Positions 1-50,814 are shown, numbered from the stretch's first letter. The stretch: DNA of 64,000 nucleotides from Psammoneis japonica (GCA_008632985.1 QPGO01000002.1:434001-498000); one strand, 5' to 3'. A program made the numbers and translations. The notes: a model not told the origin generated them from the sequence alone.

Positions 1-164
1 AGGAGCGAGGGAAGTTTGCGAAGCCAAGAACTCCTCCAGTGCAAGCACGAGAAGTTTGCAGTGCATCAGGGACCCCGCACAAGAAAGTTTGGGCTCCCCA
101 AGGTGTGAAAAAGCAAGAAGTTTGCAAAGAACGTGTTTGTGCCCCCCTGGGGCGCCAGTGTGAC

Positions 165-1918: not shown

Positions 1919-2199
1919 GGAACCCATCCACACCTCACAATGTGCTGGCCAGGTGTGTGCAGAATTGCCGGCTGCCATTTGTGCTGGCTGTTGCCAATGT
2001 GGTTGAGGATTTTGTTTTTGCATGGAATGTGGGCATGTTTCTGAAGGGGGGTGCCAATGTTGCCATGGATTGCAACATCTGGTTGACAAGACATGTTGAT
2101 GAGTGCCTTGGCCTTTTTTTGCAGGATGGGATCAACCTGTGCAGCTTTTGTCACTGCAGCATCATTGTTTTCCTTTTGTGCCAAAAATTTGGCAAGGGT

Positions 2200-4387: not shown

Positions 4388-6227
4388 CCAACAAAGGACC
4401 ACATCCTGCTGCATGACCTGTGGGCCATTGCAACGGCACAGTTGGTGAGAAAAGAGAGGCCAGCCAACAGCAAACCTCACACGCACTTCATTGCAGAATC
4501 ATTGACACCCGTCTCTTCAAATGAGCTGATGCACACGAAACTGAAACCGGCTTGCCTTAACAAGGTGCTCTTGTGTTTGCAAGCACTGCAAAGCACATGG
4601 ACAGCAGGAGCGGAGGCTTTTGATTGTTCAATTGTGCTGGCGGTCAGGTTCTGCTTCAGATGCAGGAACAAAAATCGACGTTTGCGAGGAAACACGAGGA
4701 TGCAGCAGAGCTCAAAACGCTCACACCCTCCACAGAGAGCTTGTCAGTGGGCTCATAAAAATTGAGCTGCTGCCACTGAACTTGCAGGAAAGGAGCTTTT
4801 GAATGCAAAGAAGAAGACAATTCTGCATTTTGGTGCCCACAAGATTGGGAAGGAATGGATTTGTTTTTGTTGATTGCCCGGCATTTGAGGACAAAGGAGT
4901 GAGTTGACTGGTGATGGCATCACATCCTGTCAGAGCAAATGTGGCATTTGCTCATGAAGGTTGATGCCCAAGCACACCTTGAAGAGAAGCTTGGGGAGAA
5001 CAAAAAGAAAAATGAGCTGGGCAACAAACACTTCTGATTTCATCTGATGCATCCACACAGTTGCCAGTGGAGTTCTTGCCAAAATGCACAGAAAATGTGA
5101 CCCATGACATTGAGGGAGAGTGGTGCTGAGTTGTGCCTGAGTTGGATGAACTGGGTTGTTGCTCTGAACATGTGACAGACAAATGGAAAGGACAAAAAAC
5201 AAAAAATGTAGAGTTCACCACACTTGAGAAAATGCAGCTGCAGTTTCACAGGAAAAAGGTGTGCATTTGCTCTGTTGATTTTTGCATGGTGAAGCATGGC
5301 AAAAGCAGAAAAAAAGCCATCTCACATTTGCCACAACTGGGGTGTCACAGTTGACATGGCAGACACATTGAAAGAGATGTGAGAGCCTCTGCTTTTGTTG
5401 TTGGTCAGTGTTGGCATCACAAAAGCTGCAAAGACACCGCAAAACTGCAAACAGCTGCTGACAGTTCTCCTGATTGGACCTGTCAGTTTGACATCTGTCT
5501 GCTGTGATCCTCCAAGCCACTTTCTGAAGCCCAAATTTTCAATGTCTCAACAGCCCTTTTCACGTTTTTACAAGCTCAAATTTGCACAAAAGCACTTTGA
5601 AAGGGCTCCCTTGCATTGTGCAGATTTCACACCAGTCACTTTGCAGTGGGGTGATGCTCATGGGCCCCAACAATGTCTTTTTTGGGCAAAAACTGTCTTA
5701 GAAGTGCTGGAGGTGTGCACAGTTTTTTGTGCAAATCTGCCCAGCATTTTGTGTGGGATGCACACAAGCCCCACACTTTTGTGCACAAGCACAGGCATTG
5801 CAAAACTGCACAACTTTCTGGTCAATGCCCACATGAAGCAAGTTTTTCTTCTCATAGACAGAACCTGGATGCTGAATTGCTGTGACCCTCCAGAGCCAGA
5901 ATTTTTTTACCACGACAAAACCACGGCCTCTGACGACCTCCTCTGTTGACATCACCACTGTTCAACAAGAAGGTTGCTCTCCCCGACACCACTTGCGCTC
6001 TTAACAACAGATGCTAAGAGCCTTGTTTTGGGCAAGTCACATCCTTTATCGTGCGCTTTCCATGGGCTCAGGAATCATTGGCACTGACCCATTTTTTCCT
6101 CTTGAGCTCCCGCTGCAGCTCAACCCATCACACCCCACTCAAAGATGTGTGTCTCCATTGCCGTCAAAAGGATCCCGTCACCACTGGCGCATCTGTTGGA
6201 CTTGGCGTTCCTCTACCTTCTGCAACA

Positions 6228-10760: not shown

Positions 10761-13700
10761 GGTTGCTGTCAGCAGCACGAGGTGTCGGGAAGCATGCCAC
10801 TGCAGCAGGTGGAGGAGGTAGAGGCCAAACACAAGCGCCAGTGGTGACAGGCTGCTTGCATTGGAAAGGGAGATGTGAGTCGTCCAGTGAAGGTGATGGG
10901 TTGGAATGTGAACGAGCGGTGCGAGATGGAAAAACCGCCGTCAATGCAAGAGGTGTCTGAGCCCGTTTCAGGTGTCCCAAACCGGATCTCACTCAACAAA
11001 ACAAACGTTCCCTGTCTTTGTCATCACGAGCGCAAGCAGTGTCGGGGAGATTCGCGTTGTTGTTCAACAGCAGCGTTTACAAGACAGTGTCGTCGGAGCG
11101 GCCCATGGTTGTGCCGTGATAAAAAAAAGATGATTCTCGAGGCGGTCACAGCAATTCATCTGTCTGCCCGTCAAACAGGCTGCGTCCATGGACACCCAAG
11201 CTTTTGGTTTGTCAAAACACCATCTCAGATCCACTGCAAACACCCCCTTTTCAAAAGTTGAAGTGCGCCAAAGTTGACCTTGGATTGTTCAACTTCATTT
11301 TTTGAGCCAGCTGTCCAACCAAAAATCAATCTTGGCAGCTGACATAAAAAATGCAGCTGCAAAGTCAAAAAAAAACCTGAGCTGGGCTGAGCTCAATGTC
11401 CAAGCCAATGACCAGCAACAACAGCACTCTGCTCCCAGCTCAATTGTTGCCGGCTTGTGGCAACAAAAAAAAGACATTGATGGAGAGGTGACACAACTCA
11501 TTTGAACAGATGGGGCCACCCTGTTGCCAGCACAATGCGCTTGTGGTTGGCTTGCACATTTTTTAGACAAGCAAAACTGTGCAGAAGAAGAGAAGAACAA
11601 ATGTCATGCCATTGCTTGATCTGCCATGCACTGGCCAAGTTCAGCATGGCACAAACAGCTCCATGATTCTTGCCGCATCCATTGCTCCAGGTGCCTGGTG
11701 GCTTGTGTTTGTGGCCACACCATGGGAGACAGCAACAGTGTTTTGTGCTGCAACAAATGAGCTGTTGCCTTTTGCACACATGAGATTCAAAAAGGGGAAG
11801 AGTGCACAATGCCATCAGATCTGCCACACATTGACTTTGGTCACACAGTCCAAGGCTTCATTTTTGATTCTGCCTTTGCTCTGGATGCTTTGTGGCTTGC
11901 ACTTGTGGTGTGACACAGCACGTGTGTGACAAACAATCTCTGTTGGATTCTGCACACACACAAGCCACCACATTTCACCCCTTGCTTTTTGCCATGTGCT
12001 GCACTCAATCAACACCATCAACTGTGCTGTTGCTTGTGTGGCAGGATTGGATGGGCAATCAGAGATGGCACCAAGGAAGAAGCCATGTTTGTCTGTTTGT
12101 GTGATTGAAGGCACTGGTGTTTGGCTTTGATTTTGACACATTTGTTTTTCACTTTTTCTGTTTGGCATGGTTTTGCGCATGTGCAAAGTCAAATGTTTGG
12201 CTTTTGGCGCATTTTGTTTTAGAAAAATCTCTGTTTTTGGAATGACTCTCAGTCTTGTTGAGTCCACAGAATTTGATCTGGTCTTGTGGGATGTGAGCCA
12301 AGGTTGCCAAGGCACACGCTGTGCCTGCACAAGGTTGAACTTTGGAGCAGCACAATTGTTGGAGCACAACCCAAGGCATGCCACATGTGAGTGATTTCAA
12401 TCCAGTGCCTGGAAGGTCACAAAAATCAGCTGCATCAAAGAGATGTGTTTTGCCATTGTGGCACCTTTTCAGATGCCTCAGCAAAAGGGCTCCCACCCCC
12501 ATGTCAGTGCCAAAAGAAGGTGCTGACAACCATGTCCTTCATCACAACACACAGCACACAGTGGCGCACAAGCTGGAGGCATCAGCATGATGCCCTCTCT
12601 CAGTGCAATGTTTTCACCATGCTCTGCTTTTGAGATGGCCCATTTTCTGAGCTTTGCAATGATGCAGGAAGCAATGACATCCTTTAAAATGACAGCATCA
12701 TTGACCAAGCAACTCAGCTCCACTTTGGGCTGCCCTCAAGATGCCTTGTTGTGGGATGTCATGATCATGTTGCATGCTCAGCACTTGACACACACAGCTG
12801 ACCATCTCTGAAATGACCCTGGCAAGAAACCACACAGTTGGCTTGCTGTCAAAGACAAACAAAGAGGTTGAACATGTCTGGTTGAAGAATGGCCTTGAGA
12901 GGGTGCCAGCATTGTTGACGCTGTTGCACCAGCTGACAGAGCAACAAAAAACAATGGAAGCTTGCCTTCAATCCTTAAAAACCAGTGCAAGCTGCCACTC
13001 AACATTTTTGACTTGCAGCACAATCTGCAAAATGGCAAGCACTGGAGGATCCAACCCCAGAGCCAGTGTTCACAATCACAACAAATCAATCTGTGAGCAC
13101 TCTGCATTTTTGACTTGACACTGTGTGCAAATGAAGCTGCTCCACAATTTCAGAAATGACATTTTGGCTGCACCATTTGCCCACCAGAAAAGGCTGCATT
13201 GGTTGGTGAGTTGACAGGAGCAAGTGAGCCAAACTGCTCTCATGCATTTCTGATGCAATCATTTTTGCCATGCTTGCAGTGAGGAGATCCAGAAAACTGC
13301 AACAGCCAGCTGGCCAAGGAACCTGTGAAATGGAAAAATTTTGCAAGCAAGTGGGCTTGGCAGTCACACAAGAGAAAAGTTTCCATGTCCTTTGTCACAT
13401 GCTCCTTTTGCCCCGCCATGTTTCCACTGTTGTGTTTGTGCTGCACTCTCAAACTTCCTGCCAATGATCTTGCAGGAACACCCACTGCGCCAGGGCCCAT
13501 TTGGAGAAAAGTGCACAGCAGCACTCTGATCCAAAAGATTCTTTGTCATGGCAGGGGTCGTTCTTGTTTGCAAAGAATCCTCCACACATGCATTTGCTCT
13601 CTCATGCTTCAAAGCACACAGCACTTTGCAAGAAAACACAAAGGTTTTGCCTTGTTTGGGTTTGTGCAATGCTCTTCTGCTGATTGCAGAAACTTCTCTG

Positions 13701-16700
13701 GAGGGAAGCAGATGTGGGTGAAAAATCTTCCGTTTGTCACCCAGCCCGTGCACAATGCAGGAGGGAAGCACACATTTGTTGGCCACCACTTGAAGCCCCT
13801 CAAAAGCAAAACAAATGTTTGCAAAGATGCCTCAAAAAGCAAAATGAATGTTGGCAAAGATGCCATGATTGTGCATGATGTGACTGGACTGATGCACAAA
13901 TTGTGGTGCATTGATGAGTGCAGCCCATGTGTTTTTTGTCGTTGTGTGCATGTGAGGAGTGCAAATGCACTCAAGCTCTGGGTGGGACCTTGTGACACTG
14001 GGGACTGTGAAAGAATGTTTTTAATTCATGCCTCAACCCCAATGTTTTGTTGCTGAGAAACTCCTCTTGCTTCCATGGTGCCACAATCAAAATCGGGTTC
14101 TTTGCACACATGAGTTCCTGTGCACAGCCCAGTTGCTCCCACAGCTTGTGTTGTGTCTTGCAGGGTGATTGCCAGTGTGCACTCTGGCACAAACAACTCC
14201 AAACACTTGGTGGGAAACAATCAAAGTCATGTCTGGATGACATCCCTGCATTTCAGCACCCTTTTTGCCAGCAATGACAGAGAAGGCCACAAGCAAGGCC
14301 TCATGGGCCCAGCGAGCAAGCCAGCCAAGGGGCCACAAAGCCTCGTGCTGAAAAATCTCCTTGATGACTTCTTGAGCCGTTGGCTCTCTGTGTGGTGGCA
14401 TGATGCGGCAACAACTTTTCTTCAAAATGGCAAAGGCAGGCTCAAGCTTTTCATTGGCATCCATCACATGTTCTCAAAAGACACTTGTGGTCTTTCTGTG
14501 GAAAGGACAGATGGAACAACTGCAGAGCCATGCACTCGAGCCAACTCATGCAATTCATTTTGTGACATGTTTTCATCCACAATTGGGCCCTCCAACAGTT
14601 CAGTCATTGCCCTGCATTGACCAAGACCCTTTTTGCTTTTCAAACAATGAAGCTCCAAGGATGGCCTGCATGTGCAGCTGATGCAACAAACACCTCTCTA
14701 GAGGAAACACATGCAAGGGCAAGATGCAATGAGCAAGAAGAGCCCTGACAGCTGCTCTCATCATGCTGAAAGTGACACCAGCTTGCACAAATCAGAGTGT
14801 GGGAGAGGGGGGCATCCTTGTTGTTGCAGAGAGATCATTGAAAAGACAAAAGTTGGCATGTGTCCATCCAGCTGCATGTGAGTTGCACCAGCCACACATT
14901 GTCGATCCTGTCTGACCGTGGCAACCAGAAAATTTTTTACCACAAAAAAATTTTTTGAACAAATTGTCCATGGCATCATTTCAAGCAGCTCCAGTGGGCT
15001 GCTGCAGCCTCTCCATGAACCAACATGGATTTCAACATGAGAACGGTGCTTTGCATCAAGAAGATGGAGGTCATGGCTGTCTTCTGTTGACTCACAACTT
15101 CTGATCACCATTGTTTTGTGTGCAAAAACTTGCTGACATGCCAAAGAGTCCCAAGGCTTTGCAGAGGAGGTGGTCGATGCAATGCTGGGGCAGAACAAAA
15201 AAGAGCTGACAGATCCTTCAAAAACACAGCAGCAGTCTGGGGGTGTTGGCTCTTGGCTCTTTAAGAAGACAGATGAGCTTGTTTTGTTGGAGCTGCGCTG
15301 CCAACAACAACAACCAGCGCGCACCCTCTGATGCTGTTGCAGATGGCTTTTTCAATGTGCAGGAACACTGACATCAGAAATGATGATTTTCCATTGTCTT
15401 TTGCATCAATTTGATTGTGGCAAGAGGGTGTGTCCAATGTGGAGATGTGTTGGTGCTCCACAATGTGTCGACTCACCTCTGTCATGAGTTGGTCTCTCAA
15501 TGACTGGCTCCCGTTTTGATGAATTTGGAGCTTTGCTTCCACTTCCACCAACTCTCCCTCCAAGTTGAGTCCCATGGTGGAGACACGGTGCTTGCCACAG
15601 TGCCCTCATGGTTGGCATCTAGAGTGGCATGCAGCAGCACATGCTGGTGTGGCAGCCATGGGTTTGTTCTCACATGATGATGTCTTTGCCAAACTGGATG
15701 CTGCGGCCAGCAATCAGAGATTCCAATTTTTGATGTTGACAACCAGAGTGCAAGAAAATGTCCATCTGCTGGAGCCAGCCCACACAAACTGTCTCATCTC
15801 CTGGATTGTGGCAGCAGCAGTGACTGAAGCATTGTGTGGTCTTTAAAAAATGTCAACAGGGCTCCTGACAGAGTGGCGCACTGTGCTGCCAATGCTGCTG
15901 CTCCACATCAGGATCTCAAAGCGGCACTCATCCAGCACCACACCATCTGCCAAAGATGACTCAACATCATTGGAAGCTGACTTGACACCCAAAAGAGAAA
16001 GAGTGTTGGGAGCAGCCACAACATCAACTGCGACACTTCAAACATTTGTGGAATTTGATTCAGCCCTGCACACGACAGTTCCAGCAAAGATCTTGGAATT
16101 CATGACCTTCCAAACGCCAGCTGGTGGACAGCAAAGATTGCTCTGACTTGCAGCTGCAACGTCAAGTGTGCTCTGTTGCAGAAAAGAGCTGCAGAATTGG
16201 GAAGGCTCCAGGATGCAAACAAAGCCAACACAGCCAAAGAAGCCCATGATTGCTTGACTCTCAAAACATTTTGAGTGTCACTTCACATGCTGCCACCAAT
16301 TTTAGAGACAAAACCAGCCATTTGCATGGTCACAATCATCCTTTGCACCCCATTGTTTTCAAGAAAACAGGTGTCACACAGAGTTGTTCAAGGAGATTTT
16401 CAGACAGCAACAAGTTGTGTGGGGAGGAGAAACCTGTTTGCAAAAACAAACAACAATTTGTGCATTTTTTAACAACTCTTTCACTTGGATCTTGCCTGCT
16501 GGCTCTTTTGCATTGCATCTTTGTCAGCCATGCAAAGACGTTTGCAAAACATCCCTGGACATCTCTGGGTGTTGCCTGGTTGCCAAGAAAATGCACCAAG
16601 AAGGGATCTGATGGTGTGGTTGCTTGACTCAAATTTGCAAAAAATTTGGTGGCAACGGTGAGACAGGGTCAACAACAGTCTCTGTCCAGAGTGGCTCCAG

Positions 16701-17489
16701 AGAGCAGAAAGTTGCTGCAGCTCTGAGCTCATGAAAAAAGGAAGAGGAAAAGGAGGAGAGCAGGAGAGAAAGAGAGAGGTGGAGTTCAAAGTGTGCACAT
16801 GACACCCACACCCAGACAACTGACATGCCTCAGGGCCTGTCAGGCCTTGACACAAAAAAAACCATGTCAGCAGCAACACCCGCTGCTCAATTTTGTCTGC
16901 AAACCTTTTCTCCTGCAAAAAATGCAAGTGCGAGACACTCTGTGTTTTTCTCTGACAAGTGTTTGCCCAAAAGAGAGGTGAGAGAAAATTCAAAAATGAA
17001 ACTCCCTTCTGTTGATGTTGCAGTGCTGCCAGCACCACATTCTCACAACTTGCACTTCTCAATTTCTGTTCACACTGGTCAGATCAACGAACACAGAACC
17101 TCTGCTTGTGTGGGGGCAATGACCCAACTCTCTCTGACAGTGAAAAAAACCTGTTGAGCACTGCTCCTTCACTTCACCACACTGCTGCCACACTCCACAC
17201 CAACACCCACAAGACTGGCATTGCTTGGTGCAGCCGGTGTTTGAAGATGGCACCACAGTTGGCGCAAAAGTCTGCTTTTGGCATTGGCAAGCATGGCAGT
17301 GCCGCCAGCACTGTTGACACACAGCCGCTGATCTGCAGTCTGCGGCTTGTGAAAAAGGCCACATGCAGAAGTGGCAGACAAGGTTGCCTTTGTCTCTGAA
17401 AGTCATGGGTGGCAACTGCTGAGATTGCCGACTGCAGCAGCACCCAAGTGCTCTTTTTCACATGATGCAATGAAGTGTTCATGTGGCAC

Positions 17490-17850
17490 AGGGAGTTGGT
17501 GGCATTGGAGCAGCTGTTTGCAGCATGGAAGTTGGCAGCATCGGAGCAGCTAGACAGAACAGAGTTGGCAATGTTGGAGTGGCAAGCCAGGTGGCATGGC
17601 AGTCGGTGGCACAGCAGGAGCAGCCAATTGGCACAGGGAGTGGGTGTGATGGTGTTGGAGCAGCCATGTGGCGTTGGAGTTTGCAGCAATGGAGTGGCCA
17701 GGCAGCGCGGGATTTGGCAGCATTGGGGTGGCTCTGCTGCGCAGCACAAGAGTCAAGGCACAGCCAGGCAGCATGGGAGCTGGCGGCACTTGAGCAGCCA
17801 GCTCTTGAGCAGAAATGCAGCGCGGGAGTTGGCGCCATTGGAGCAGCTGG
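17490..17850 (+). repeat. Degenerate tandem copies of a ~24-bp motif GGGAGTTGGYRGCATTGGAGCAGC
   Basis: About seven irregularly spaced copies (e.g. ~17491, 17527, 17562, 17709, 17775, 17824). Confidence 0.6.
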
Positions 17851-19158
17851 AAAGCAGAAGTCAGCCACAATGGAGCAGCAGGAGCGCCAGGGTGGCATGA
17901 GAGTCAGCAGTGCCAGAGCACCCACTTCTTGGAACAGGGAGTGGGTGGTGTGCTGGAATGCTGCTGCAGGTGTGTGGCGCGCCACAGGTTTGTGGTTTGT
18001 TTTGCATCGCCGAGCTCAAATCCATCATCACCAAGTTGAAAACTTGGGGTTGATGCCAACGTTGTTCTTCCATTTCTGCTCTGCATTGGAAATTCTTTGC
18101 TCCTGGCTGGGTGCTCATCAACACCAGATGAGAGCCAACCTTCTCAGCTGCACTTGTTCTCCGCATTCTTCCTCGGCTTGTGCATGGGACCTCTCCAACA
18201 ATTTGCAAAACACGCGCAACACTCGCTCCATGTCGACACTTGTTTTTCTCTGGCATGCTCCCGCCCTTTCTTTTTTTGTAGATCCGACTCTCATTCTCTC
18301 ACACACGAAGATTTGCTGGTGCTGGCATGTGTTGTGGTGTGGGCGCTTGCGCTGCCATTGGCTGCTGCTGCGCACAGTGTTGTTCTTTCTGACCTGCTCT
18401 TCATTGCTGCTGCAACGGATCTGATGTCAACACAGCTCAATCCACACCTTGCTGCGCCGCTGAAGGCTGTCACTCAGAAGCTTCTTCTGACATGGTCAGC
18501 GCTGCAAGTCAATGTTGACGCTGTTTTTCTCGCTTTGGCTTGCTGGCTTGTTGAGCAAAAGAAGTGCATGGGATCCACATTTCGCGCTGCTCATGTTGGC
18601 TGCATCCTGTTGCTGTTGCGAGCCAGCCAACCAAAGTCCCGTTCTTCGCCGTCACGGAGTCGCAGTTAGAGACTGTTTTGACTCACAGCAAAAATGGCAG
18701 CAAAAACTCGACCGTCGCAATCTGTGTTGCCATCATCATAACTGCTTTCAACTGCCCTTTTGAAACGACAAGAGGCATTGGGTGTTGATGAAACTCTATG
18801 CACCAAACACCGCTTGAACGCATCAAGAAACGCAATGTGCCATCAAAGCAAATGCACACCCATGAATAAATGCTTTCGTTTATTCGGGCCATCGTACGTC
18901 TTTGCGTTGGTTACGACTGCCGCACAGACCATGTCGAGCACGGAAGCTTACACCGTAAAAGTGGAAGAGACAAAGCAATAAGCTACACTGAAGAACTGGA
19001 AAATGCAAATGCAATTATAAAAAACATAAACTTTTTATTATGGCAAGCCTCCCACCGCCAAACCGGTGCTTGTTACAAAGAACATCTAAACCATCCATCC
19101 CTCTATCCTCAGTACTACCAAATGCCGCATTTGAGCGTATGACGATCAAGAGGGGCGA

Positions 19159-26987: not shown

Positions 26988-27849
26988 GGTGCCGAACAAC
27001 TCTCACAACTTCTGTTGTTTGGTGCGGAAGAAGTGAGAAAGAAGCAAGAAAAGCGTGGGGCGGCGGGTGGCGCGGGTTCCATCATCGCGCGCAAACTGCT
27101 ACCAGTAATGCGAAAGCGCGCCACAATGCAGCAAGCTTGGGTTTCTTGTTGTGCTGCAGCTGGAGCATCATGTGTGGCTCTCTTCCAGCCAACAGCATGG
27201 GTTGCTTTGCTTGTTTTCGACCAAATGCGCAAACAGCTGCCAGCCAGCCCAGAGCAAACTTGCTTGCATGTGCTTGCCAGTGCCTGCTGGAGCTGAGTTG
27301 TGCCTGTCACTGGCAGTCTTTCCTTGTTGACCTGCAAGAGAGGGTTGTTTGCAGAGCTGCCTGGGCCCTGCATGGTGTGTTGGCAGAAAAGCAAGAGAAA
27401 GGGAGCACCACTCGTTGGGGGGGGCATTGCCCTCAAAGGTCTCACAACAGCTCTTTTGCACACCAGGCATCATGTGGCAGCACACACTGTCTCTTTCTCC
27501 ACCAAGTTTTTTGCTGCCCTCCCTGCCTTCTTGCCAGAGCAGGTGTTGAAACAAAAACATTTTGGTGGGTGGTGGTGGCAACCAGCAGCAGCAGTGGCAG
27601 CAGCAAAAGTGTCATTGCCAAGAAATGGCTTTTTTTCATGTCGGTGTGGCAACTGGCTGCATGCAAAGCAGAGCAGGCTTGTGGCTGCCTCAAATCCAAA
27701 GAGAGGCTGGCCAGCTTGGCACTCAAAGCAAGAGATCCCCAAACCCTGCTCTTTGGCAGACCCACCTGGGGCTCTCATTGTGCTGCAGCTGGAGCACCCT
27801 GCTGCTTGCCAGCCACTCTCTTCCAACACGACAACTGGCCAACATCGCA

Positions 27850-28125
27850 TGACAGAAATTGAAGGCAAATGGCAAGAATTCAAACAACAACTCCTCACTG
27901 CTGTCTAAACAGCAGATGAGTCTCCGCTCAGAGACCGTTGCAGGAGCCGAAGGATGTGTGAGTCGGCACAATCGGGCTGCTGTTGTCATTCTTGTGAGCC
28001 TTGTGGCTCGAAAGCAAACTACATCGCGCGTGAACGCGTGGAACCAAAGCACACAAAACTGTGCACGGCAAACCAAACAGCGCGCGATGCTTCGCGCGCA
28101 CCTGAATCCTGTTCAAATCCTGTCA
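27850..28125 (-). repeat. 3' LTR (hypermutated copy)
   Basis: Aligns without gaps to 33552-33827 with 14 substitutions. Confidence 0.95.
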
Positions 28126-28139
28126 CTCCCCAGTTTGCT

Positions 28140-28510
28140 TGAGGAGCCACAGAAACAGATTCGACTTTGGATGGAATGAAGTTCCAGAACATGAGGGGGC
28201 GGAGAAGGTCCCAGATTTGGGAGCAACCCCAATGCTTGCTGAGAATGTCAGCAGGGTTGCGGGAGCCTTCGATGAAGTGGAACTCAAGGCAACCAGAGGC
28301 AATTGCCTCACGCACACGGTGGAACGACAGTGCGGTGTGTCGCTTGTGTAACTTGGAGTGTGGGATGGTGGCACTGTCTACAACCGACTTGTTGTCACCG
28401 AACATGCAACCAACGTTACGGATCGGGACGCCAAGGCAGCACAGGGTGATGCGCAGGTCGACAATCTGCTCAACACAAGTCCTTGCGGCAACAAATTCAG
28501 ACCCGTGATG
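28140..28510 (-). pseudogene. Copia RNase H C-terminal part
   Basis: HGSEFVAARTCVEQIVDLR...LGVP...CMFGDNKSVV...LHKRH.ALSFHRVREAIA...NPADILSKHWGC. Confidence 0.9.
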
Positions 28511-29616
28511 TTGTAGCTGGAGCCTTTCCAGGTTGGGTCGTGAGGCTTCAGAGGTCCTTCGTGTGACACGATGCGTCGAAATTTCCAAACAGTGGTGTCT
28601 TCGTCTTCTTGCTCAATGTGATTCATGATGTCATTGCAGGCAAGGACTTCCTCGTATTCGTCATTGTTGACAGAGCAGACGAACTTAGTGAGCTCGGGAT
28701 TGCCGTTCACTTTCCATTCATGGTCTTCGATGGCCTTGACGATGCGAGCTCTGTGGCGTTGTCCGTCCTCTTGTGGCTGCATGAGGAAGGTGCGTCCAAT
28801 GATGTCTTGCGGATCGAAAACTGGCATCTTGGGTGTCCTGATCTCCCCATCAGGAGAGTCGACGGGGTTGTCGTCATGGCGAGATTTGATGATGGGTTCA
28901 GGTGGCTCCCCATCAGGAGGATCAAGACGCAGGTTTCGGACGGCAGGATCGGGGGCAGCGGAGCGGATGTTGGACCGGCAGAGGATCTTCTGATTCTCGT
29001 CAGATAGAATCTTGAAGGTCATCTGGTGGCCGACGTGCTCAGCAATGCCAACGAAGCGTCCACGCAACTCACGGGATTCGGACGGCCAATCGGAGTCATC
29101 GAGGTGGAAGCACACGGGTTCCCACCAGTGAAAGCGAAGCAATGGGCTGATGTCCGGGGTGGAGCCAGTGAGAGTCTCAAGGGGCGTGCGCCAGTGGAGA
29201 CGTGGGGACGCTGCATGGTTGAGTGTGAAGCACACGCACATGAGCGCCAGCAGCCATGCATGGGCGGGCGAACCAAAACGATCCATGACAGTGTTCGCCA
29301 TGCGCTTCACGGTCTGGTGTCGACGCTCGGCAAAGTTTTGGTGTTGCTGGTGAGGCTCACTTTGCCAGCTAGAGATGAAGAGGGCGCGCAGGATCCCGAG
29401 CACTTTGTTGCTGATCTCAACTTGAGCACGGTCGCCAATGAGTTTGGATGGGGCACCACGTTCACGGATCTGATCCTCGAGTGTGTTGACAAACTCTTTG
29501 TCCGTCTTAGTGCCGTAGACGTCAGTGACGGCAGACTCGGTGCCAACAAACAGTTGGGCACTGGTGCAACCAGAGTCGACGGCCGGGGTGTCGGCATGAA
29601 CGGTGTCAGTGGCGAA
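28510..29616 (-). pseudogene. Copia integrase core and downstream linker
   Basis: ATDTV...AQLFVG...RGAPSKLIGDRAQVE...SEPHQQHQNFAERR...GRFVGIAEHVGH. Ends at WKGSSYNI, joined directly to RNase H. Confidence 0.9.
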
Positions 29617-29925
29617 GATCCTTGAACATGTGGGGTTCTTGACCGTTGACCGATGAACAGGCATGTCAAGGGATGAGGATCAAGGACAGACTTGGATGTG
29701 ACCGTTGAATGCATGTCTTCAGCGATCAAAGGTGGCACAATCAAACCAGATGTCCAGCGGTAAGGAGACTTGACGGTGACGTTAACTTCCTGCCGATGCC
29801 CTGGCATTGGATGCGCGTAGACTTGCCGATGCATGTAGAATGTGTGCGGAGGTCCACGCAGAATTGAAATGGCGTCGCTGGCAAATCAACGACGACGATG
29901 GCGGTTGCTCAATGGGTTGACAATG
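29615..29925. repeat. Internal duplicate of the element's 5'-UTR segment (33225-33535)
   Basis: Ungapped 311-bp alignment at an offset of 3610 bp. Confidence 0.93.
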
Positions 29926-32610
29926 TTTGGGGTTAGTGCCGTAGACGTCAGTGACGGTAGACTCGGTGCCAACAAACAGTTGGGCGCTGGTGCAACCAGA
30001 GTCGATGGCCGGGGTGTTGGCACAAACGGTGTCAGTGGCGATGGGCTCGTTGCGGCGGTGCACATTAAGGGCGGGGTTGGGTGATTTGCAGGCCTTGCGA
30101 AGGTGTGTACCGGCGGGCATGCGGGCGCACTGCGTGGTGCAGTCAAAAGTACGACGGACCGCATCGGCAGGCAGGAAGCCAAAGCAAGGCCGAAGAGACT
30201 CGAAGGGGGGGTCCTTGGGCTGTACAGTGCGCTCCGGAGGTGGAACATCATCGCCCTGGGGGCCAATCGCATGCAGATGACACTCGTAGAACACGTCGTC
30301 GTTCGGAATGAGGTGATCATCGAGGGCGGACGCGTGATCGGCAGACAAGGAAGCGGACATGATGGTCTCGTTGACAACGACACGATGACGGCAGTTGCCG
30401 CATTCATCAAACAGGTTGGCAGTGGGATCGTCCTGTGGGTCAGAGATCGCGTCGCACCACTGGTCGTCGTCAGTGACAGAGTGATCGAGGACGGAAGGGT
30501 CCCATGTGTCATCACCGGTGAGGATGACATGGGGCAGGGTGTCCCATTCGGCGTCAGTGTAAGGTCGCATGGCAACACAAGGCAGGCCAGCCTTGATGTC
30601 AATGGGGATGACACAGCCATCAGGAGTGGCAATGCGTTGCAAGCCGTTGGGCACCTTGACAGAGCAATCGTTGACATCCTGTTTGCACCATTCGAGCTGG
30701 CCGCAGGAATGGATGGTCTTGCCCTTGCCCGTGTGTGCGTGCTGATGGAGTGTGGCGATGACGGGACCACGCTGGGTCTCAACAACGGCGCCAGCGGTGA
30801 CAATGGGGATGTCCACCAATTGATGATCGTCAATGCCCTGAACGTCGACTTGGCGAGAGGTGCGTGCAATGACGCGAACGTCGTCGCCAGCAATGCCGCC
30901 GTTGGCCCCACGATCGACTAGAGCGCCAGTGCGTGTGGAGCGATGAGCAGAAGCAGAGTAAATGACATTGTGGTTGTCAACGCGGCGGCAAGTGCGACCG
31001 TCAAGTTCTGTGTCATCTGCAGAAGCTGGCGGGGTAGAGGAAGCGGCGGATGGCCCCAGTCGACTGGCATTGGGGGCTTGGTTAGGAGACAACAGACGTT
31101 GCAGATCACCGGGTGGCAGTGGCTTGCGCTTGGTGAGGTGCGCCAGGATGGGATCATCCGAAGTGGCGTCCACATGTGGAGCGGAGTCACCAGAGTCAGC
31201 AGGAGTCGTGTTGGACAAGTTGACATCACCGTCACTCCCAAGGCGTTGGTCGTGAAGGTTGGCCGTAACAGACTCATGGCAGTTGCTGGCTCGCGGGTTG
31301 CGGGGAGGTGGACGAGAATGCTCAAGGATGATCGCCTTGGAGGAATCGGGCAACGAATCCCAGAGCCATTGGTGGTCGGGAGGGAGACGTCTCCATTGGA
31401 CACCGGCGAGGCTGGGACCGCGGGTGCAGGCAGCATTGGCTTGAAGGACGTCAACATTGCTGTCAATGTCGTAGAACACATCGTCGGACGGTTCCTCGGA
31501 GCAGACGTCGTGTGCGTGTGTGGCGCGTCGGGGAGCTCGAGGTGTCGTCTTGGGTTGAAACGTGCTGTCGTGCTGAGCTGCGGCGGAGAGGAGCAAGCCA
31601 CAGCATTGATCGCATGTGAGGCTCTTGCCACTCTGCGTACGATGCTGATCAGCTTGGTTCTTGACAGCACGGAGTTCCTCGACAGGGTGCACGGCATTCT
31701 CGAGCATGACGCGCTTCTGTCCTTCAGAGAAGTGGTCACTGGCCGGGATGAGTGCCTCGCACTTGCGCAACTGATCTTGCCAATGAAGGATGAACCCGTG
31801 GGTCGGACCTTTCCAAGTGCCATCACCAAGACGCGCGGTGGTGAGGTGCATGAGCAGGGTGGAGGACTCGACAGATGCGCGGGTGGAGGCAAGCGCATGC
31901 TCAGACAAGGAGCGGCAGACGGTCTGTGCGTCAGAAGACCCCACATTTTCGCGAATGAGAGCCTTGCCCTTGTCGGTGAGAAGGATGCGTTCGAAGACGG
32001 CGAACATGCACTTTTGCTGTTCAGCAAAGAGCAGTTTGTCTTCGGGGCTGGTCGGTTTGTACGACGAGTCTAGAGTGCACTCGACGTCTTGGGCACGGGC
32101 TTGTGCCACAAGTGAGGTGTGCCAAGTGTGCCACTGCTTGTCGGATTTGAGAGCCGTGAAAGCGGTGGGATCACGCTTGATGCCTCGCTTGAAGTCCCGC
32201 ACCGGGTCGCGTGCCTTGGTCGGGTTGGTGACATGTGGAGGTGCAAGGGGTGAGCTGCCGATGGACACAGAAGACATGCAGTCGGGGCTGAGGCGGCAGG
32301 CAAGGAACTCGTCATGCGTGAACAAAGAGGAGTCGTTGGCAACGTCAAGACCTTTGTGTGCTTTGACAATGCACAGACTGACTGGTGCTGCTAACATGTT
32401 CTCATAACCACGGGGCAAAGGGATTGCATTGGCGCCGTTGTCGCGCTCAAGCGAGTCGATTTGGGACGGCATGAACGTGAACAGTTCCTGATGCGAGTCC
32501 GTGCCGTCTTGGGCCAAAGCCAAATGAAGAGGACTCCCAGCACCTTGGGCAAGCACGGTTCCAACCACGTGCTCGAAACCATCGGTTTGTTGCTGACGAG
32601 TGAGAACCAT
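29926..32610 (-). pseudogene. Copia gag-protease-pre-integrase polyprotein region
   Basis: Long ORF from MVLTRQQ with FKRGIKRD, protease-like ALVDRGANGG and LPHVILT...WDPSVLD. Breaks after TDVYGT, where a 5'-UTR copy is inserted. Confidence 0.88.
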
Positions 32611-33551
32611 GGTGGACAAAGGTGGTGTCAGGACAATCAATTCTGGTTGGGAAGCGAGGGCAGACTCGAAACTTGGGTGAGAACAGACTTGACTTGAAAT
32701 GGACTTGACTTGAAATCTTGAACTGTCTTAAAATCAGAAGTCGCCGGGCTTTGTTGTCCCGTTCGTTGTCAAGTGCTAAACTTCCCATCCGGTCCGCAGA
32801 GTTGTGCCGGCACGTCCGAACCCGCAGCCAGCGGCGCTTTGGGTTGCTTGCGAGCGGAGCAGCGGGTTGTAAACCCCTGCAGGTAAGCTGACCAGAGGTG
32901 GACAAGACCCCCGAACCGTTCTCATTTTATGTCGGTTGGATTTCCCGATCAGGCTGGCCAGTTGACGCAGGCGTCAGGCGCTGTGGACGAACGAACAAAC
33001 GCGGGAAAGCACCCTCGCCCCAACGCAGGCTGCAATCACGGCTGCCTGCTCTCACAGTCGTCCTCGTGGACCTAGCAGAACTGTAGAGCACCAGCAGTCC
33101 GGGGTAGATCAGGTGCAATGGACCCGGTGTGCTTGTAGAGTGGTGGCAAAACCGCAGTCCGAAGAGTGGATAAAGGTTCTTGGCCGTGAAGATATGTATA
33201 TATATATACATGTCTTCAGCGACTAAGATCCTTGAATATGTAGGGTTCTTGACCGTTAACCGAGGAACAGGTATATCAAGGGATGTTGATCAAGGATAGA
33301 CTTGGATATGACCGTTGAATATAAGTCTTCAGCGATCAAAGGTAGTATAATCAATCCAGATATCCAGCGGTAAGGAGACTTGACGGTGACGTTAACTTCC
33401 TGCCGATGCCCTGGTATTGAATGCGCGTAGACTTGCCGATGTATGTAGAATATATACGGAGGTCCACGTAGAATTGAAATAGCGTCGTTGGTAAATCAAC
33501 GACGACGATGGCGGTTGCTCAATGGGTTGACAATGAGCAAGACTGTTAATC

Positions 33552-33827
33552 TGACAGAAATTGAAGGCAAATGGCAAGAATTCAAACAATAACTCCTTAC
33601 TGCTGTCTAAATAGCAGATGAGTCTCCGCTCAGAGACCGTTGCAGGAGCCGAAGGACGTGTAAGTCGGTATAATCGGGCTACTGTTATCATTCTTGTGAG
33701 CCTTGTGGCTCGAAAGCAAACTACATCGCGCGTGAACGCGCGGAACTAAAGCACACAAAACTGTGCACGGTAAACTAAACAGCGCGCGATGCTTCGCGCG
33801 CACCTAAATCCTGTTCAAATCCTGTCA
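33552..33827 (-). repeat. 5' LTR (TA-intact copy)
   Basis: TG...CA termini; lies upstream of gag on the minus strand; retains 14 TA dinucleotides. Confidence 0.95.
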
Positions 33828-35012
33828 TCGCAGGATGAGCTGTCAAAGGTGCGAGCACTGACAGCCAGCCCAGAGAGAAGTGGCTTGCCTGTGCACACTT
33901 TGCTGGTGCCTGCTGGAGTTGAGTTGTGGGGGATCAACAGCTGCTTGCAGCCACATCTCACATGCTTCACAATGACGTCTTTGGACATTTCTTTTGGAGC
34001 CGCGCAACATGCTGGTTCGGTCGATGCAGCGCCGCAGGGCATGGGGTCAATGAAGGAAAATGGATTCAATGTTGTCCATGTTGAGCTCATCTTCCAACAC
34101 CCTCTTTGCACTTTCAAATTCTCTGATTCCCAGTGTGCGTCACTCTGCAGTGTCCGAAATGCAACTCGGCATTCATCTGGTGCATGGGAAGCACAGCGTC
34201 AGACAACATTTGACCCAGTTTCACGCCATTTCTCCACTCTTGACATTTGGCACAAGAAATCTTGCTTCCAAAATGCCAATGACAGTTGGCCACAACAGGA
34301 AAGACTCGTGTCATTCGGGGGGGCTGCAGACGAAGCCCGAGCGTCTTTTTGCTTTTCAGCACGCAGTGAGGTGCGACCACACCGGTGCCTGCGAGACTGG
34401 CGGCAACCATGTGATGCCATCGAACCTGGGATAAAATGGAGGAACACGCCATTGTGATCACTGGTTTTTGTTGAGTGTCATTCTGCATGTGAGGGGAAGA
34501 GACAATCGCTTCCATTTGCTTCATCAACTCAATGTGACGGGGCAGGGAAGCAGGCATCAGTGGTCAGTGGATTGAATGACGTGTTGCAAAGTCGTGTTTG
34601 CCACATTAAACTGCCTCTCCAGCCAGCTAGAGCAGAGAGTCTACAAGGATGGAAACAGAATGAATCATTGATTGTGAAGCGTGTGCGCCACAGGTCGGCC
34701 GAAAGGATGGTGGATGCTGCTCATGACTGCATTGATTTTTGATCACCCTGCCGTCTGACCATTTGCTTGCATGATGGCAGCTGAGCCCTTTTCTGAGCTT
34801 CACAATTTTCCTGCTTGTTGTGCTTTGGCGATCTTGTCCAACAACCCGCACGGCCACAAGATTTCCCACGATGGCAAAAATGCCAATCTTTTAGACTAAC
34901 GCAACACGTCCAATCCCAACAATGTTCAAAGACCAACACCAAGCTTGCCATTTCTATTTTTAAACATGCACGCTAGTCTACTTTGAATCTTTGACCCGAG
35001 TGTCTTTCATCT

Positions 35013-46190: not shown

Positions 46191-49100
46191 TCTTCACTTG
46201 TTGCTCGATCCACAGAAGCACAAGTACAACCAGTAACCTTTCCGAAAACTTAATTCACTTTCTCAGAGAAGAAGTGGTCTTCCGAAGCTTTATGAGCAAC
46301 AAGCAAGCCGCCACACAAAAAACGACAATGGACATGGTCATTTATCTACTGTGACTTCACAATGACTTGTGACTTGCGGTCATCCCACATTTTTACAATT
46401 GCCCTTTCCTCGGTCCATGGCTGGTGTGGCATGCACTGCGATTGAGGGAGACGATCAAAGATGATCGATGAGAGTTTCACATGCACCTTGTTCAGCTCCT
46501 CATTCATTGCTGACCCCAGTGGAAAAAGCATGTGAGAGGGCCGGCATGTGAGATGGGCGCACATTGATCCTGGGAAACTCGGCTTTCGTCGATGTGCTCC
46601 ACACTTGTGTGCTCGCCAGAAACACTGACAAAGAAGTGCAGAAACTGGCAAATTTGCTGGGGCAGCAGCAGCCTCCCCCCCCCTCACCTGCTGGGCAGAT
46701 GCAAAAGCTCAGCAGTCAGCCCCCACATGATGCATGGGATTCAAAGTGTGTGTGTGTGTGTGTGCTGTTGACACCACCAGCAGAAAAAGGCGAGCAGACA
46801 TGTCTGTGTTTGCTGCTTTTCTTGCTCAAACTTAGGAGCTCCTCACTGTTTTTCCCGTCATTGTCTGGCTTGAGACCCACCTGCAGCTCTGTCATCTGGC
46901 ATTGCTTTTGGTCACCAGAAAGGCAAAAATGTGCTTGGGCTGTGGCACACCTCTTGCACAAATTGTTGCATTGTGCGCTTTTTTTTGTGCTCTCATTTTG
47001 ACAATCTTCTTTGCTGCATTGTGGCATTTTTCGTGCTTTTGGTGGCACTGCTGCTTGCTTGAGTTTTGAGCATGACACAGGGTGACATTTTCCTCATGAG
47101 GTGGTGGTGGGGAGTGTGCGCTTGGCACCAGTGTCTGTGCAGGGGTGCATCAAGGATGGCACACCCAGAAGCTGCACAAGAAGCCAGCGCCAGCAGAAAA
47201 TGGCTGTGTGTGGTCTTTCCCTCCATCCATCCTTGCCCGTCAATCCAATCATGTGCTGCAACTTCTTGGGAAATGAGCTGAGACCCAACCTTGCCAGAGG
47301 ATCATGTTTTTCATCATGCAGGACAGCGCAGAAAAAATGTGACAGGCAGGGCCAGGTTTCAACTGTGACTTCTCACAAAGCTGTTGGCACCAGCTGCCTT
47401 CTTGTGTGGTGAGTGCATGCATTGTTTGAGGCTGGCCCAATGGAAAAGCATTCCCCCACCATGTCCTCTTGAGCTCCCAAAACATTTGTTGAGAAAAAGC
47501 ATGGTGGGCATCTTTCCTCAGGCACAAACACATTTTGCAACAAATTGTTTTGACTCTTGCTGCGCCAAATGCACTTTGCCAGCCTCTGGTCATTTTGAAA
47601 AGGAGCCAAGAAAAAGCAGCACACATGCATGGCTGCAAAGCTTGTGATGAGAGCTCACGATCAGTGTTTCCACATCTTGGGCCTCCCACACAAGCCATCT
47701 CAAGCTCCGTGGGCATGCCTCTCTGTTTGGCAAGCCTCGTTTGCACATGTTTTTGGCTTTGTTTCTTCCCAGCATGCTCAAAAAAAAACATTGTGGCTTT
47801 CACAATGTTTTGGAGTGACCCCCCTTTGAGCCTTGAGTCAGAATGTGTGACATCATCTGCCTGTGCACAGCACAAAGAAGAAGTGAGTTGTGTCCCTTTT
47901 TTTGAGCAGTGCCTCATTGATGAAAAGGAGGAAGCCATGGTGAAAAAGCTGCTGCAACCTCCAGAGGCTTGCCATGTGGATGATGAGGAACAAAAGGCTG
48001 TTTGCCCCAACTGACACGACAGCTGTGCATCCAAACCATGATGGCCTCCACATGCATTTCTGAGTTGTGGGCTTTGTGCATGACTCTCTGTAGAAAGGAG
48101 AGCATTTGTTGAGCCACAGGTTTTGTGAAGTGCTGTTGGGGATGGCAGTCAAAGCAGCAACCTCTCTGCAGCAGAAAAGTGAAAGATCATTGCCCCCAAG
48201 GATGCCAGCTGAGACTTGCTGACATGTGTTGATTGCACTCTCTCCCACTTGGCTGGTGTCCAAAGTGCTCTCAGGTGCCAAACAATGACTCTCAAAAGGC
48301 CAACTTCCAACAGCAGATGTGGGAACCTCAGCAGCTCTTGGGCTCTTCATGGGGTTTCAAAAATGGCACAGAATCTTGAAGAAAATTTGTCAAATGTCTT
48401 GATGCATCCAAAGCTCTTGTTCCCCAGTGATGCTCAACCTTCCACTCAACTGTGCAGTGCAACTTTTTTTCAAAAAGTGGGCTTGCCTGAGTTGCAGCTG
48501 GTGTGACATGTTCCTGCCCCAGGCAGGGCTGCATGTGTGACATGTGCCCACAGAGCCAGTGCACTGGACAATGGACACATGTGTCCTCAGCATCTAAATG
48601 ACGAACAACCCCAAGTCTGTGGCACAGCTGCCTCTCAATGCTTGCATTTTTGAACATCTGCATGTCCTGCAAAAATCTTTCAAAACGTTGGAGAATTGCA
48701 CTGCACAAGAAAAGTCAAAAGTTTTTGAGTGGGGTGGCCCAATGAGCAGTGTGCCAAAAAATGACACAAAATGACGCCAAAGTCATGCAGAAATGTGTTT
48801 GCACAATGTGTGGTGGCACATCACAAAAAATGTCAAATGTCAAAGTCCAGCAGCACAAGGCCCCACCTGTGAGTTGGAGCACATCTGGCATTGCCAAGCT
48901 TGTTCACATCTTCACAACTCTCCTTCCCCAGTGCCCAACACTCAATCTGAGGATCTCAGTGAGATGGCTGGACAGGGCCAGGTTCCAAAGCAGCAGAAAA
49001 TGATTGTGCTCTTGCAGAGTGCAAGCCTGAGTCTGGATTTGCACGACAATGTCATGCAAAGTCACTTCTGCAAGTTTCCACCAAAGCCAAAGTGCTCTCC

Positions 49101-50367
49101 CAGCTTGGGCTCCAAAAAGGCAATGCACTGTGCATTTCTGATCAGAGGGCCAGCTGGATCTCTGACTTGATCTTCAAAAACAACATGAACATGTCTTGCA
49201 ATGGGAGCTGGCTTGGTCTCATCCATGCTGGTGGGAGCAGCATTTCAAAAAAGCAGTTGGAGGCTCTGCCATGGCTTGAGAGTCACCATTGCCACCCAGC
49301 ATCTGGCACAAAATGGCTGGGGATGCAACACTTGTCAGCATCTTCCTCTGGCACAATTGTGGGCATGGCACTGTGCAGGAGGCCTTGGATGTGACTGGGA
49401 AATTTGTTGCTGTCATCAAAACAAGTGCAAAGAATGCTGGAAACAACTGCAGCATTTTTGAAGGGTGCAGCGCTCCTGGGAGAGCATTGCTGATGATGCT
49501 GCAGCAGTGTTGACATCAGAGGGGCTGACACTGTCCAAAACCTGGCACACAATTGCAGAAACGCTGTTGGTCATTGTGGTTGCCTTGATCAACAAGAAGG
49601 CACCAACACACACCCATCACTTTGCCACACCAACAAATGGGGGGCAGAGAGTGGGCACTGGTGATGGCACCGGCACTCGTGGCAGCAATGGCAGCAACGA
49701 CAACAAAGACAATGATCTTTTCCATGCAGTGGACTGTGAGCTGATGAGCAATTCAGAAATTGTGAGAGCATTTGAATGAGAAAAAATTTTGTCTGAGTTG
49801 AGGTGACATGGTGCAAAACACTCAGAAATCTGCGCAATTTGAGCTGCTCGTCAGACGGGCGACACTTGCTGATGTTCAAAGAAAGTTTGACATCATGCCT
49901 GTGTGTCACAATGGTGCATTGGCCATGGATTGGTTTCACCTGCAGTGTCCACCAGCAATGTCATGGCAAGTCCCAATGGATCTTGGATGATTTGCAAACA
50001 GTGTCACAAAACATGAGCTGGAGGACCACACATGCCAAAACACACTCAGTGTCGCAGCAAAACATGAGCTGGAGGACCACATGCCAAAACACTCAGTTGC
50101 AGAGAAATGTGGGTGAACAATCCATGAAAGGGGTGCTCACAAAAGAGCCAAAACAAGGCTCACAAGGAACAAAATCCATTGCTCACCATGGGAAGATGTT
50201 TTGATGCATGTTGCACATGTTTGCAGCACAAGGTTGCAGATTCAAGTCTCAGGAGTTCTCACTCATTCTTGTCTTGAGAGGGAAACCAACAATCTGCTGA
50301 GTCCACAATGACTCGCTGTCATGTGTCCACATGTGAACAACCACAGGGAAAATCGACAAAGCTGTGG

Positions 50368-50814
50368 CGCAGCATGCATGCAGACAAAAGGTCATTTTTG
50401 TCACGCCCTTTGTGACATTTAAAGGCTGCAACACGTCGCCGGGATGCATTGACTCTCATTGGTGGCTGTGTGCTGCACTCCTCCCCATGTGTCACGCGTC
50501 CATGCGGCTCTTTACTAATGTGCACTGACGCTGCACGGTTTTGGCGGAACAGTGTGGGTGCGTGCGAAGGAACACACAGAACTGCACAGAGTTTTACGCG
50601 TTCGACAGTGATCAACGTTGCTGCAGACAACTCCCACTCAGGATTTCGAACCCCTGGCCTCCTGCCCAATTGTTGCGATGAACCACTCCGCTGTGAATTC
50701 ACAACGCAGCATGCATGCAGACAAAAGGTTATTTTTGTCACGCCCTTTGTGACATTTAAAGGCTGTGACACGTCGCTGTGATGCATTGACTCTCATTGGC
50801 AGCTGTGTGTTGCA
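50368..50814 (+). repeat. 110-bp direct repeats (50368-50477 and 50705-50814)
   Basis: CGCAGCATGCATGCAGACAAAAGG...GATGCATTGACTCTCATTGG occurs twice. Confidence 0.9.
50630..50700 (-). other. Degenerate tRNA-like sequence (possible SINE head or tRNA pseudogene)
   Basis: Minus strand reads CAGCGGAGTGGTTCATCGC (A-box/D-arm-like) and CAGGGGTTCGAAATCCTG (B-box/T-arm-like). No intact anticodon arm. Confidence 0.4.

Follow-up and report, generated by a model that had tools for sequence, protein, structure and literature searches.

Which copy has changed, and by what process, when the two long terminal repeats (LTRs) of a single retrotransposon come to differ almost solely at TpA steps? The question is raised by an LTR retrotransposon at positions 27850 to 33827 of a 64,000-nt stretch from the diatom Psammoneis japonica (GCA_008632985.1 QPGO01000002.1:434001-498000; the whole stretch is hereafter called the window, with positions counted from its first letter). 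From the LTR pair, the original prediction proposed that a strand-symmetric A:T>G:C mutator specific to TpA acts on silenced DNA faster than CpG decay, in the opposite direction to fungal repeat-induced point mutation (RIP). The proposal was followed up with this one 64-kb window, homologous proteins, metagenome loci, and contigs from four sequencing runs of one sample. The best explanation, and a highly probable one, is a post-integration mutation process turning TpA into TpG or CpA, which has acted on a defective Copia element and on the blocks surrounding it.

The outer parts of the element are as follows, where TA, CG, CA and TG denote dinucleotides and o/e the observed-to-expected ratio.

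27845..27849, no strand: left copy of the target-site duplication (TSD), TCGCA, by direct sequence reading
27850..28125, minus strand: 3' LTR, TA-depleted, TG...CA, with 2 TA and 18 CG, TA o/e 0.13 (repeat finder and alignment)
28126..28137, minus strand: putative polypurine tract abutting the 3' LTR (its reverse complement ends ...GGGGAG), so labelled from its position only
33552..33827, minus strand: 5' LTR, TA-retaining, with 14 TA and 20 CG, TA o/e 0.77 (repeat finder and alignment)
33828..33832, no strand: right copy of the TSD, TCGCA, by direct sequence reading

The repeat finder and pairwise alignment returned two LTRs of 276 bp each with TGACAG/CTGTCA ends, zero indels between them, and TCGCA directly outside both ends. 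A scripted listing gave exactly 14 differing sites, 12 of which place TA in the 5' LTR against CA (8) or TG (4) in the 3' LTR, the other two being CG in the 5' LTR against TG in the 3' LTR. The original prediction had described this pair by manual alignment, down to the absence of any other change and the loss from the 3' LTR of 12 of its 14 TA and 2 of its roughly 20 CG, and all of it was reproduced. Both TA that remain in the 3' LTR are common to the 5' LTR and no TA site is confined to the 3' LTR, an asymmetry of 12 against 0 (binomial p = 0.0005), and in purine/pyrimidine coding the two repeats are 100% identical. The copy at 33552-33827 is the 5' LTR because the element lies on the minus strand, as read from the purine tract at 28126 and the minus-strand gag and integrase frames, which also bears out the earlier assignment of the TA-rich copy. 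Because both LTRs of a retroelement derive from a single template, they start out identical; the 12:0 difference therefore arose after the element had inserted.

A second repeat pair lies within the element, whose interior was delineated by comparison with P0001, a homologous metagenomic polyprotein of 1859 residues.

28019..28612, minus strand: open frame, C-terminal (RNase H end), matching residues 1736-1850 of P0001 (protein match)
28378..29679, minus strand: open frame, integrase region, matching residues 845-1216 of P0001 (protein match)
29507..29932, minus strand: 426-bp insertion peculiar to this copy (repeat finder, alignment, and a contig of another copy)
29782..32727, minus strand: 981-codon open frame matching residues 1-879 of P0001, covering gag, protease and the start of integrase (protein match)
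32729..33551, minus strand: 5' leader keeping its TA, 44 in 823 bp (dinucleotide count)

The 426-bp insertion consists of a duplicated 109-bp coding piece (29507-29615, repeated at 29933-30041) together with a copy of a leader segment at 29606-29925, and the contig of another copy joins 29506 straight to 29933, that is, without the insertion. The inserted segment is a TA-depleted copy of leader positions 33216-33535, where TA o/e is 1.06. The two differ at 31 sites, 21 of which are TA in the leader against CA or TG in the inserted copy, with no case of the reverse. Over both repeat pairs, all 33 of the 33 polarisable sites set TA against CA (18) or TG (15). As repeat pairs by themselves cannot separate the loss of TA from its gain, proteins were used as the outgroup.

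Alignment of the three frames with 40 full-length Copia homologs yielded 39 columns with a tyrosine consensus, of which the element has kept Tyr in 7 and shows Cys in 18, His in 8, Phe in 3 and some other residue in 3. In a leave-one-out control over the 40 homologs, 1424 such columns held Tyr 1145 times, Cys twice and His 30 times, so that replacement of Tyr by Cys or His stands at 26/39 in the element against 32/1424 in the homologs (Fisher p = 3e-30). Phenylalanine was retained at 24 of 28 columns. Tyrosine accounts for 0.62% of the residues of the element against 2.87-4.09% in the homologs, and cysteine for 3.17% against at most 1.39%. TAY codons thus became TGY and CAY, and TA was lost. 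A single transition can account for 59 of the amino-acid differences: A>G in 35 cases (T precedes in 24), T>C in 10 (A follows in 9), G>A in 11 and C>T in 3. This breakdown upholds the TpA specificity claimed at the outset. Changes from A:T to G:C make up 12/14 of the LTR differences and 21/31 of those in the leader duplicate once polarised, and 45/59 of the single-transition amino-acid changes; this polarity rests on the protein outgroup and on two sites polarised within the family.

Loss rather than gain was further supported by relatives of the element and by its own family. A metagenome scan recovered 79 related Copia loci at 35-69% protein identity, none of the same family, in which TA o/e ranges from 0.31 to 0.98 and the longest TA-free gap is 195 bp. 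The element interior (0.16) and the left LTR (0.13) fall outside this range, and the TA-rich 5' block (0.87) falls inside it. (The lowest of the 79 values belongs to L071, a metagenome contig of 2759 bp with TA o/e 0.31 and CA+TG 1.42, possibly an element of some other organism that was mildly affected.) Over the element, contig depth sums to 25,000-250,000 against about 64 on its flanks, and the family must therefore number on the order of thousands of copies. Transitions account for 332 of 385 variable places among these copies. At the LTR site 28074 and at 31002, which are among the 40 of 392 variable places listed, T (the TA state) makes up 89% of the depth contributed by other copies. TA, CA and TG also coexist among copies at single sites (at 30108/09, CA makes up 43% and TG 32%), and a CA>TA process was excluded as their source on this ground. 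The direction of change put forward in the original prediction therefore stands on the tyrosine columns, the 79 relatives and the family state at 28074.

The process affects both strands alike, with 18 CA against 15 TG in the repeat pairs, as had been anticipated. It is also fast by the measure of CpG decay: 34 of 40 TA but 3 of 40 CG have gone from the mutated copies of the two repeat pairs. TA is thus lost at about 24 times the rate of CG, a ratio relative to CpG in this element and not absolute, in keeping with the earlier claim that TA loss outpaces CpG decay. Decay of CpG is also present: CG faces TG or CA at 2 of the 14 differing LTR sites and at 3 of the 6 in the 109-bp duplicate, and at 30006 and 30018 other copies carry CG (92-100%) where this one has TG. 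A neighbouring-base preference was likewise apparent. In normal blocks, 502 of 1083 TA stand in the ATA/TAT context; so do 21 of the 33 sites that mutated, none of the 6 that did not, and 6 of the 71 TA that survive (p = 2e-11), these last being mostly TTAA, TTAG/CTAA, CTAG and GTAG. From this enrichment among mutated sites and scarcity among survivors, the favoured target reads T-A-T.

The same footprint extends well beyond the element. The window as a whole contains 1342 TA against 4136 expected from base composition, and has 47 TA-free gaps of at least 250 bp, the longest of 1825 bp. The blocks concerned are listed below.

1..5500, no strand: TA-free, CG-poor, CA/TG-rich anonymous block (dinucleotide count; no Pfam match in its frames)
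11565..18667, no strand: TA-free, CG-poor, CA/TG-rich anonymous block (dinucleotide count, Pfam scan)
27107..27849, no strand: TA-free, CG-poor left flank of the element (dinucleotide count)
33833..34432, no strand: TA-free right flank of the element (dinucleotide count)
46395..50420, no strand: TA-free block with the longest TA-free run, 1825 bp (dinucleotide count)
55256..59832, no strand: TA-free block with an old inverted repeat (dinucleotide count, alignment)

Six TA-free blocks totalling 22,554 bp retain 37 TA (o/e 0.03), with CG at 0.26, CA at 1.83 and TG at 1.85; all other dinucleotides lie between 0.79 and 1.33, so that depletion is confined to TA and CG and enrichment to CA and TG. 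The gene-bearing blocks (27,024 bp) have TA o/e 0.57, CG 0.97 and CA/TG 1.15, with no depletion of other dinucleotides. The window is hence a mosaic of TA-free and gene-bearing blocks; what is established is this regionality and not a foreign origin of the anonymous blocks. In the block at 55256-59832, two arms of about 410 bp (56439-56845 and 58394-58800) form an inverted repeat with 78.5% four-letter identity and 92% in purine/pyrimidine coding, and 17 of their 43 adjacent double mismatches are CA/TG doublets, as expected if an ancestral pyrimidine-purine step had decayed separately in the two arms. The arms may be the terminal repeats of a mobile element now too old to recognise. Contigs of one run (X1) match the flanks of the retrotransposon at 27000-27877 (878 bp) and 34032-34800 (769 bp) with 0 differences at a word depth of about 64.

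Taken together, these results fit a scheme in which a DNA-level process would have struck most of the element once it had integrated, the affected stretch (27850 to about 32729) comprising the 3' LTR and the coding region. The adenine of TpA, on whichever strand, would undergo an A:T to G:C transition, at roughly 20 times the pace of CpG decay in this element. The same process brought to completion and joined by CpG decay would give rise to the TA-free, CG-poor, CA/TG-rich blocks between host genes, including the DNA at the insertion site of the element. The data directly show the direction of change, its dinucleotide specificity and strand symmetry, the regional mosaic and the rate measured against CpG. 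The likeliest chemistry would be an enzymatic deamination of adenine in the T-A context with T favoured as the next base, and the process may be directed at silenced or foreign DNA, as had been proposed, and may serve in genome defence.

Several observations weigh against this explanation and deserve fair consideration. The 5' LTR and leader (32729-33827) form a single spared block with TA o/e 0.87, CA 0.97 and TG 1.18, into which both TA-rich repeat copies fall, next to a TA-poor remainder of the element in which CpG is nearly intact (0.91) and whose interior has 34 TA in 4603 bp (o/e 0.16). Simple domain-wide targeting fails to account for a 1.1-kb island with mutated element DNA on one side and a TA-free flank on the other; the spared kilobase may have been either protected, for example as the promoter region of the element, or overwritten in recent times by gene conversion from an unmutated copy, the latter being plausible given thousands of copies. 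Part of the TA loss in the interior could also have been inherited from earlier genomic residences of a non-autonomous lineage. The listed places of the family comparison cover 2 of the 14 LTR sites, 28074 and 28104, and at the second the TA state is the minority (27% of other-copy depth, with TG at 73%), an ambiguous reading. The original prediction had named TG or CA in the consensus or in active copies as evidence that the 5' LTR gained its TA; at 28074 the family speaks for TA loss. In the doublets of the old blocks, ancestral TA and ancestral CG are indistinguishable from the sequence. Finally, all four sequencing runs derive from one sample, perhaps the source of the assembly itself, and are not independent of it.

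Among the alternatives, a different chemistry at the same dinucleotide is unlikely but survives best. The starting point would be a modified thymine of TpA, for instance a hydroxymethylated one, giving T>C, or an error-prone polymerase acting at TA. As TpA is self-complementary, T>C on one strand is indistinguishable in sequence from A>G on the other, and 5-hydroxymethyluracil is found preferentially at TpA in dinoflagellate DNA. The dinucleotide AA is, however, not depleted (o/e 1.24), which argues against a polymerase signature of the WA type and makes a poor fit of the Pol eta-like (WA->WG) repair suggested earlier, while near-complete erasure and a flanking-base preference resemble a sequence-reading enzyme. 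The sole candidate put forward elsewhere, in the work of Mettrop et al. on the alga Bigelowiella natans (bioRxiv 10.64898/2026.01.13.699255), is an ADAT2-type adenosine deaminase, which that preprint offers as a proposal only.

Far less probable is an ADAR-like A-to-I editing of the element RNA before integration, fixed by reverse transcription. It would agree with the 5' U preference of ADARs (as cited in 10.64898/2026.01.13.699255), with a modest excess of sense-strand A>G in the coding sequence (18 Cys, 8 His), and with the passage of this non-autonomous copy through RNA. The 12:0 LTR difference must nevertheless postdate integration, both strands were changed (18 CA against 15 TG), and the flanks, which are not Copia, and the multi-kilobase anonymous blocks show the same erasure. 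ADARs favour a 3' G; the favoured 3' neighbour here is T. The changes are accordingly neither confined to one strand nor pre-integration, as ADAR-type hyperediting would have them.

Largely refuted, and now scarcely credible, is a RIP-like origin, by which C>T changes at CpA/TpG would have added TA to the 5' LTR and leader (about 33170-33827), with the TA-poor state as the original one. The repeat-pair pattern alone is symmetric between the two directions, one local event would explain why both TA-rich copies lie in one contiguous block, and the TG majority (73%) at 28104 would agree with it. Against this, the conserved tyrosine codons that became Cys and His in the interior mark the TA-poor state as derived; the relatives (0.31-0.98) embrace the TA-rich block at 0.87 and not the TA-poor parts at 0.13-0.16; CA and TG, at 0.97 and 1.18, are not depleted in the TA-rich block; other copies hold the TA state in 89% of depth at 28074 and 31002; and the surrounding DNA is TA-free, not TA-rich. 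The long frames are moreover still open, and loss of TA cannot make TAA or TAG, which a CA>TA process would.

There is next to no likelihood of an artefact from systematic miscalls of modified bases at TpA in sequencing or assembly (base modifications can give motif-specific miscalls in some long-read chemistries, and the supporting runs all come from one sample), for the contigs, at a depth of about 64, agree with the TA-free flanks at every base of the 878 and 769 bp compared, erasure is graded (0.16 in the interior, 0.03 in the old blocks) and context-dependent with a 1.1-kb island of the same element spared, and the amino-acid changes follow the pattern expected of real mutation. Two further candidates were rejected: GC-biased gene conversion, as AA, TT and AT are not depleted, and selection against TA, which would not replace conserved tyrosines in a transposon.

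As to its identity, the element is a defective Ty1/copia LTR retrotransposon that lacks reverse transcriptase and has undergone the 426-bp internal rearrangement. It has TG...CA LTRs, a 5-bp TSD and the order gag-protease-integrase-reverse transcriptase-RNase H, with the reverse transcriptase deleted here and the order taken from P0001. The sole Pfam domain of P0001 is RVT_2 at 1338-1554, downstream of the integrase region; in the element, the integrase-region frame runs directly into the C-terminal piece, so that the equivalent of P0001 1338-1554, the reverse transcriptase, is missing. A Pfam search of the three frames found no domain at E <= 0.01, the homology deriving solely from the large protein search, and no primer-binding site was identified in the element. 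Protein searches for family members gave closest matches of 67% among longer and 72% among shorter proteins, and a 25-base LTR pattern had 0 matches in viral_contigs. Within the spared leader, a (TA)n run sits inside a 61-bp palindrome at 33173-33233 (84% self-complementary). The flanks of the element share an 81-86-bp stretch (27222-27302 and 33844-33928) with 78% identity and 90% in purine/pyrimidine coding, and the DNA at the insertion site is therefore itself repetitive.

The normal blocks of the window hold host genes, namely two SET-domain proteins, bestrophin, Noc2, Sir2, AIM24 and lipoxygenase, in long intronless frames. The best named relatives of the bestrophin are in pennate diatoms (Seminavis 66%, Cylindrotheca 64-65%), besides Bacillariaceae bins. 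The intronless frames and these relatives mark the host as a pennate diatom and led to the rejection of Bigelowiella as a possible host. Only about 120 bp (26985-27107) separate the bestrophin start codon from the TA-free block upstream of it, which places the promoter region of a normal host gene in fully TA-erased DNA. In and around the TA-free and intermediate blocks, 69 of 71 open frames had no Pfam match, the other two being XPG-like and in an intermediate block; a tblastn search with 40 Copia polyproteins matched the element itself only, leaving the TA-free blocks without Copia similarity, and the window returned 0 RNA genes from Rfam at gathering thresholds and 0 transfer RNAs (tRNAs) from ARAGORN.

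The intermediate block, at 5500-11500, has TA o/e 0.1-0.25 and CG 0.5-0.8, with a weak inverted repeat at its edges (5873-6000 and 11158-11028, 72%). It contains an XPG/FEN1-family nuclease frame (XPG_N, XPG_I) at 8733-10940 on the minus strand with one in-frame stop, in which one conserved Tyr position of the FEN1 alignment is His; this may be a host-type gene copy, or mobile-element cargo, part-way through TA decay. A tandem array at 19143-19800, with repeats offset by about 150 bp and 85% identical, adjoins the end of a TA-free block, is among the few places with TA o/e above 1, and encodes a Gly/Tyr/Ser-rich GYGGYYGSKG... sequence on the minus strand. At the right edge of the TA-free block ending near 50420, a 122-bp direct repeat (50356-50477 and 50693-50814; 92.7% identical, 98% in purine/pyrimidine coding) brackets about 215 bp with a tRNA-like T-arm motif recognised by eye, where ARAGORN and Rfam gave none.

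A wider proposal may be entertained tentatively, at somewhat less than an even chance. Diatoms would possess a TpA-directed DNA-editing genome defence like that of a chlorarachniophyte, which would hence be old and widespread in lineages of the SAR group (stramenopiles, alveolates and rhizarians); it would be coupled to a chromatin state that also carries cytosine methylation, erase TA in mobile DNA about 20 times faster than methyl-CpG decays, prefer the T-A-T context, and be able to leave a promoter-proximal kilobase untouched, in the way that CpG islands are exempt from methylation decay. If true, TpA editing would have a major part in shaping the intergenic DNA of diatoms (about a third of the 64-kb window here), and a natural DNA adenine editor acting on double-stranded chromatin would exist. 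A footprint on an LTR family of thousands of copies and on a third of the window suggests neither a one-strain curiosity nor a process limited to viruses. Any genome can be screened for it from sequence, through LTR pairs, Tyr>Cys/His replacement in transposon proteins, and TA-free gaps; LTR-divergence dating, transposon annotation by protein similarity, and mutation-spectrum models are expected to be biased in such genomes. Given that diatoms are transformable, a search for the enzyme, possibly a natural DNA adenine deaminase, would be directly testable.

Among known systems, APOBEC3 (on complementary DNA) and ADAR (on double-stranded RNA) likewise hypermutate retroelements with a neighbouring-base preference. 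The animal editing is pre-integration and on one strand, and APOBEC gives G>A, whereas the process described here is post-integration, strand-symmetric, of the A:T>G:C type, and also found on DNA that is not retroelement. Deamination of methyl-CpG also acts here, leaving CG o/e at 0.26 in the old blocks, but it accounts for a minority of changes, is about 24 times slower per site, and cannot remove TA. Fungal RIP shares dinucleotide-specific, strand-symmetric transitions, which damage DNA that is repeated or mobile and strongly alter its composition. RIP, which depends on duplication and the sexual cycle, makes C:G>T:A changes at CpA, turning CpA/TpG into TpA and raising AT; the direction here is reversed, and an A:T>G:C mutator with dinucleotide specificity and directed at mobile DNA mirrors RIP.

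The closest parallel is the TpA hypermutation reported by Mettrop et al. in mutation-accumulation lines of B. natans (10.64898/2026.01.13.699255), a 2026 preprint on viral inserts in one rhizarian alga and the sole earlier report of such a process. It shows the same signature arising de novo, and the earlier suggestion that no such system had been described is superseded. There, 231 of 302 nuclear mutations fell in an integrated giant-virus region and a virophage region, 230 of these 231 being A>G or T>C and 230/230 on TpA, at a rate of about 6e-7 per site per generation; this is about 1000 times the background rate, and the mutations were confined to some of the lines. The B. natans genome, of about 95 Mb, has 124 clusters depleted of TpA and enriched in CpA+TpG, its hypermutable nucleocytoplasmic large DNA virus (NCLDV) region has a Rho of 0.45, and its TpA-poor genes are enriched in reverse-transcriptase and DDE domains; the main text never mentions LTR, Copia, retrotransposon or CpG. 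A full-text literature search found no report of TpA hypermutation in diatoms or on LTR retrotransposons, the diatom-plus-hypermutation match that was inspected being concerned with immunoglobulin hypermutation.

Both systems change TpA to TpG or CpA only, on both strands, and regionally with the rest of the genome normal, leaving TpA-depleted clusters enriched in CpA+TpG, at a rate far above background (orders of magnitude in B. natans, about 24 times CpG decay in the element here). They differ in host, a chlorarachniophyte (rhizarian) there and a diatom (stramenopile) here; in target, integrated viral DNA there and an LTR retrotransposon with anonymous intergenic blocks here; and in the evidence, de novo mutation having been observed there and a footprint read here. 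Erasure is far more complete in the window, with o/e 0.03 over 22.5 kb against the Rho of 0.45 in B. natans, and here CpG is depleted along with TpA, and a flanking-base preference and partial sparing of the element are seen. The process is thus known in kind; new here are the lineage of the host, a retrotransposon as target, how complete the erasure is, the coexistence with CpG decay, the flanking-base preference, and the partial sparing.

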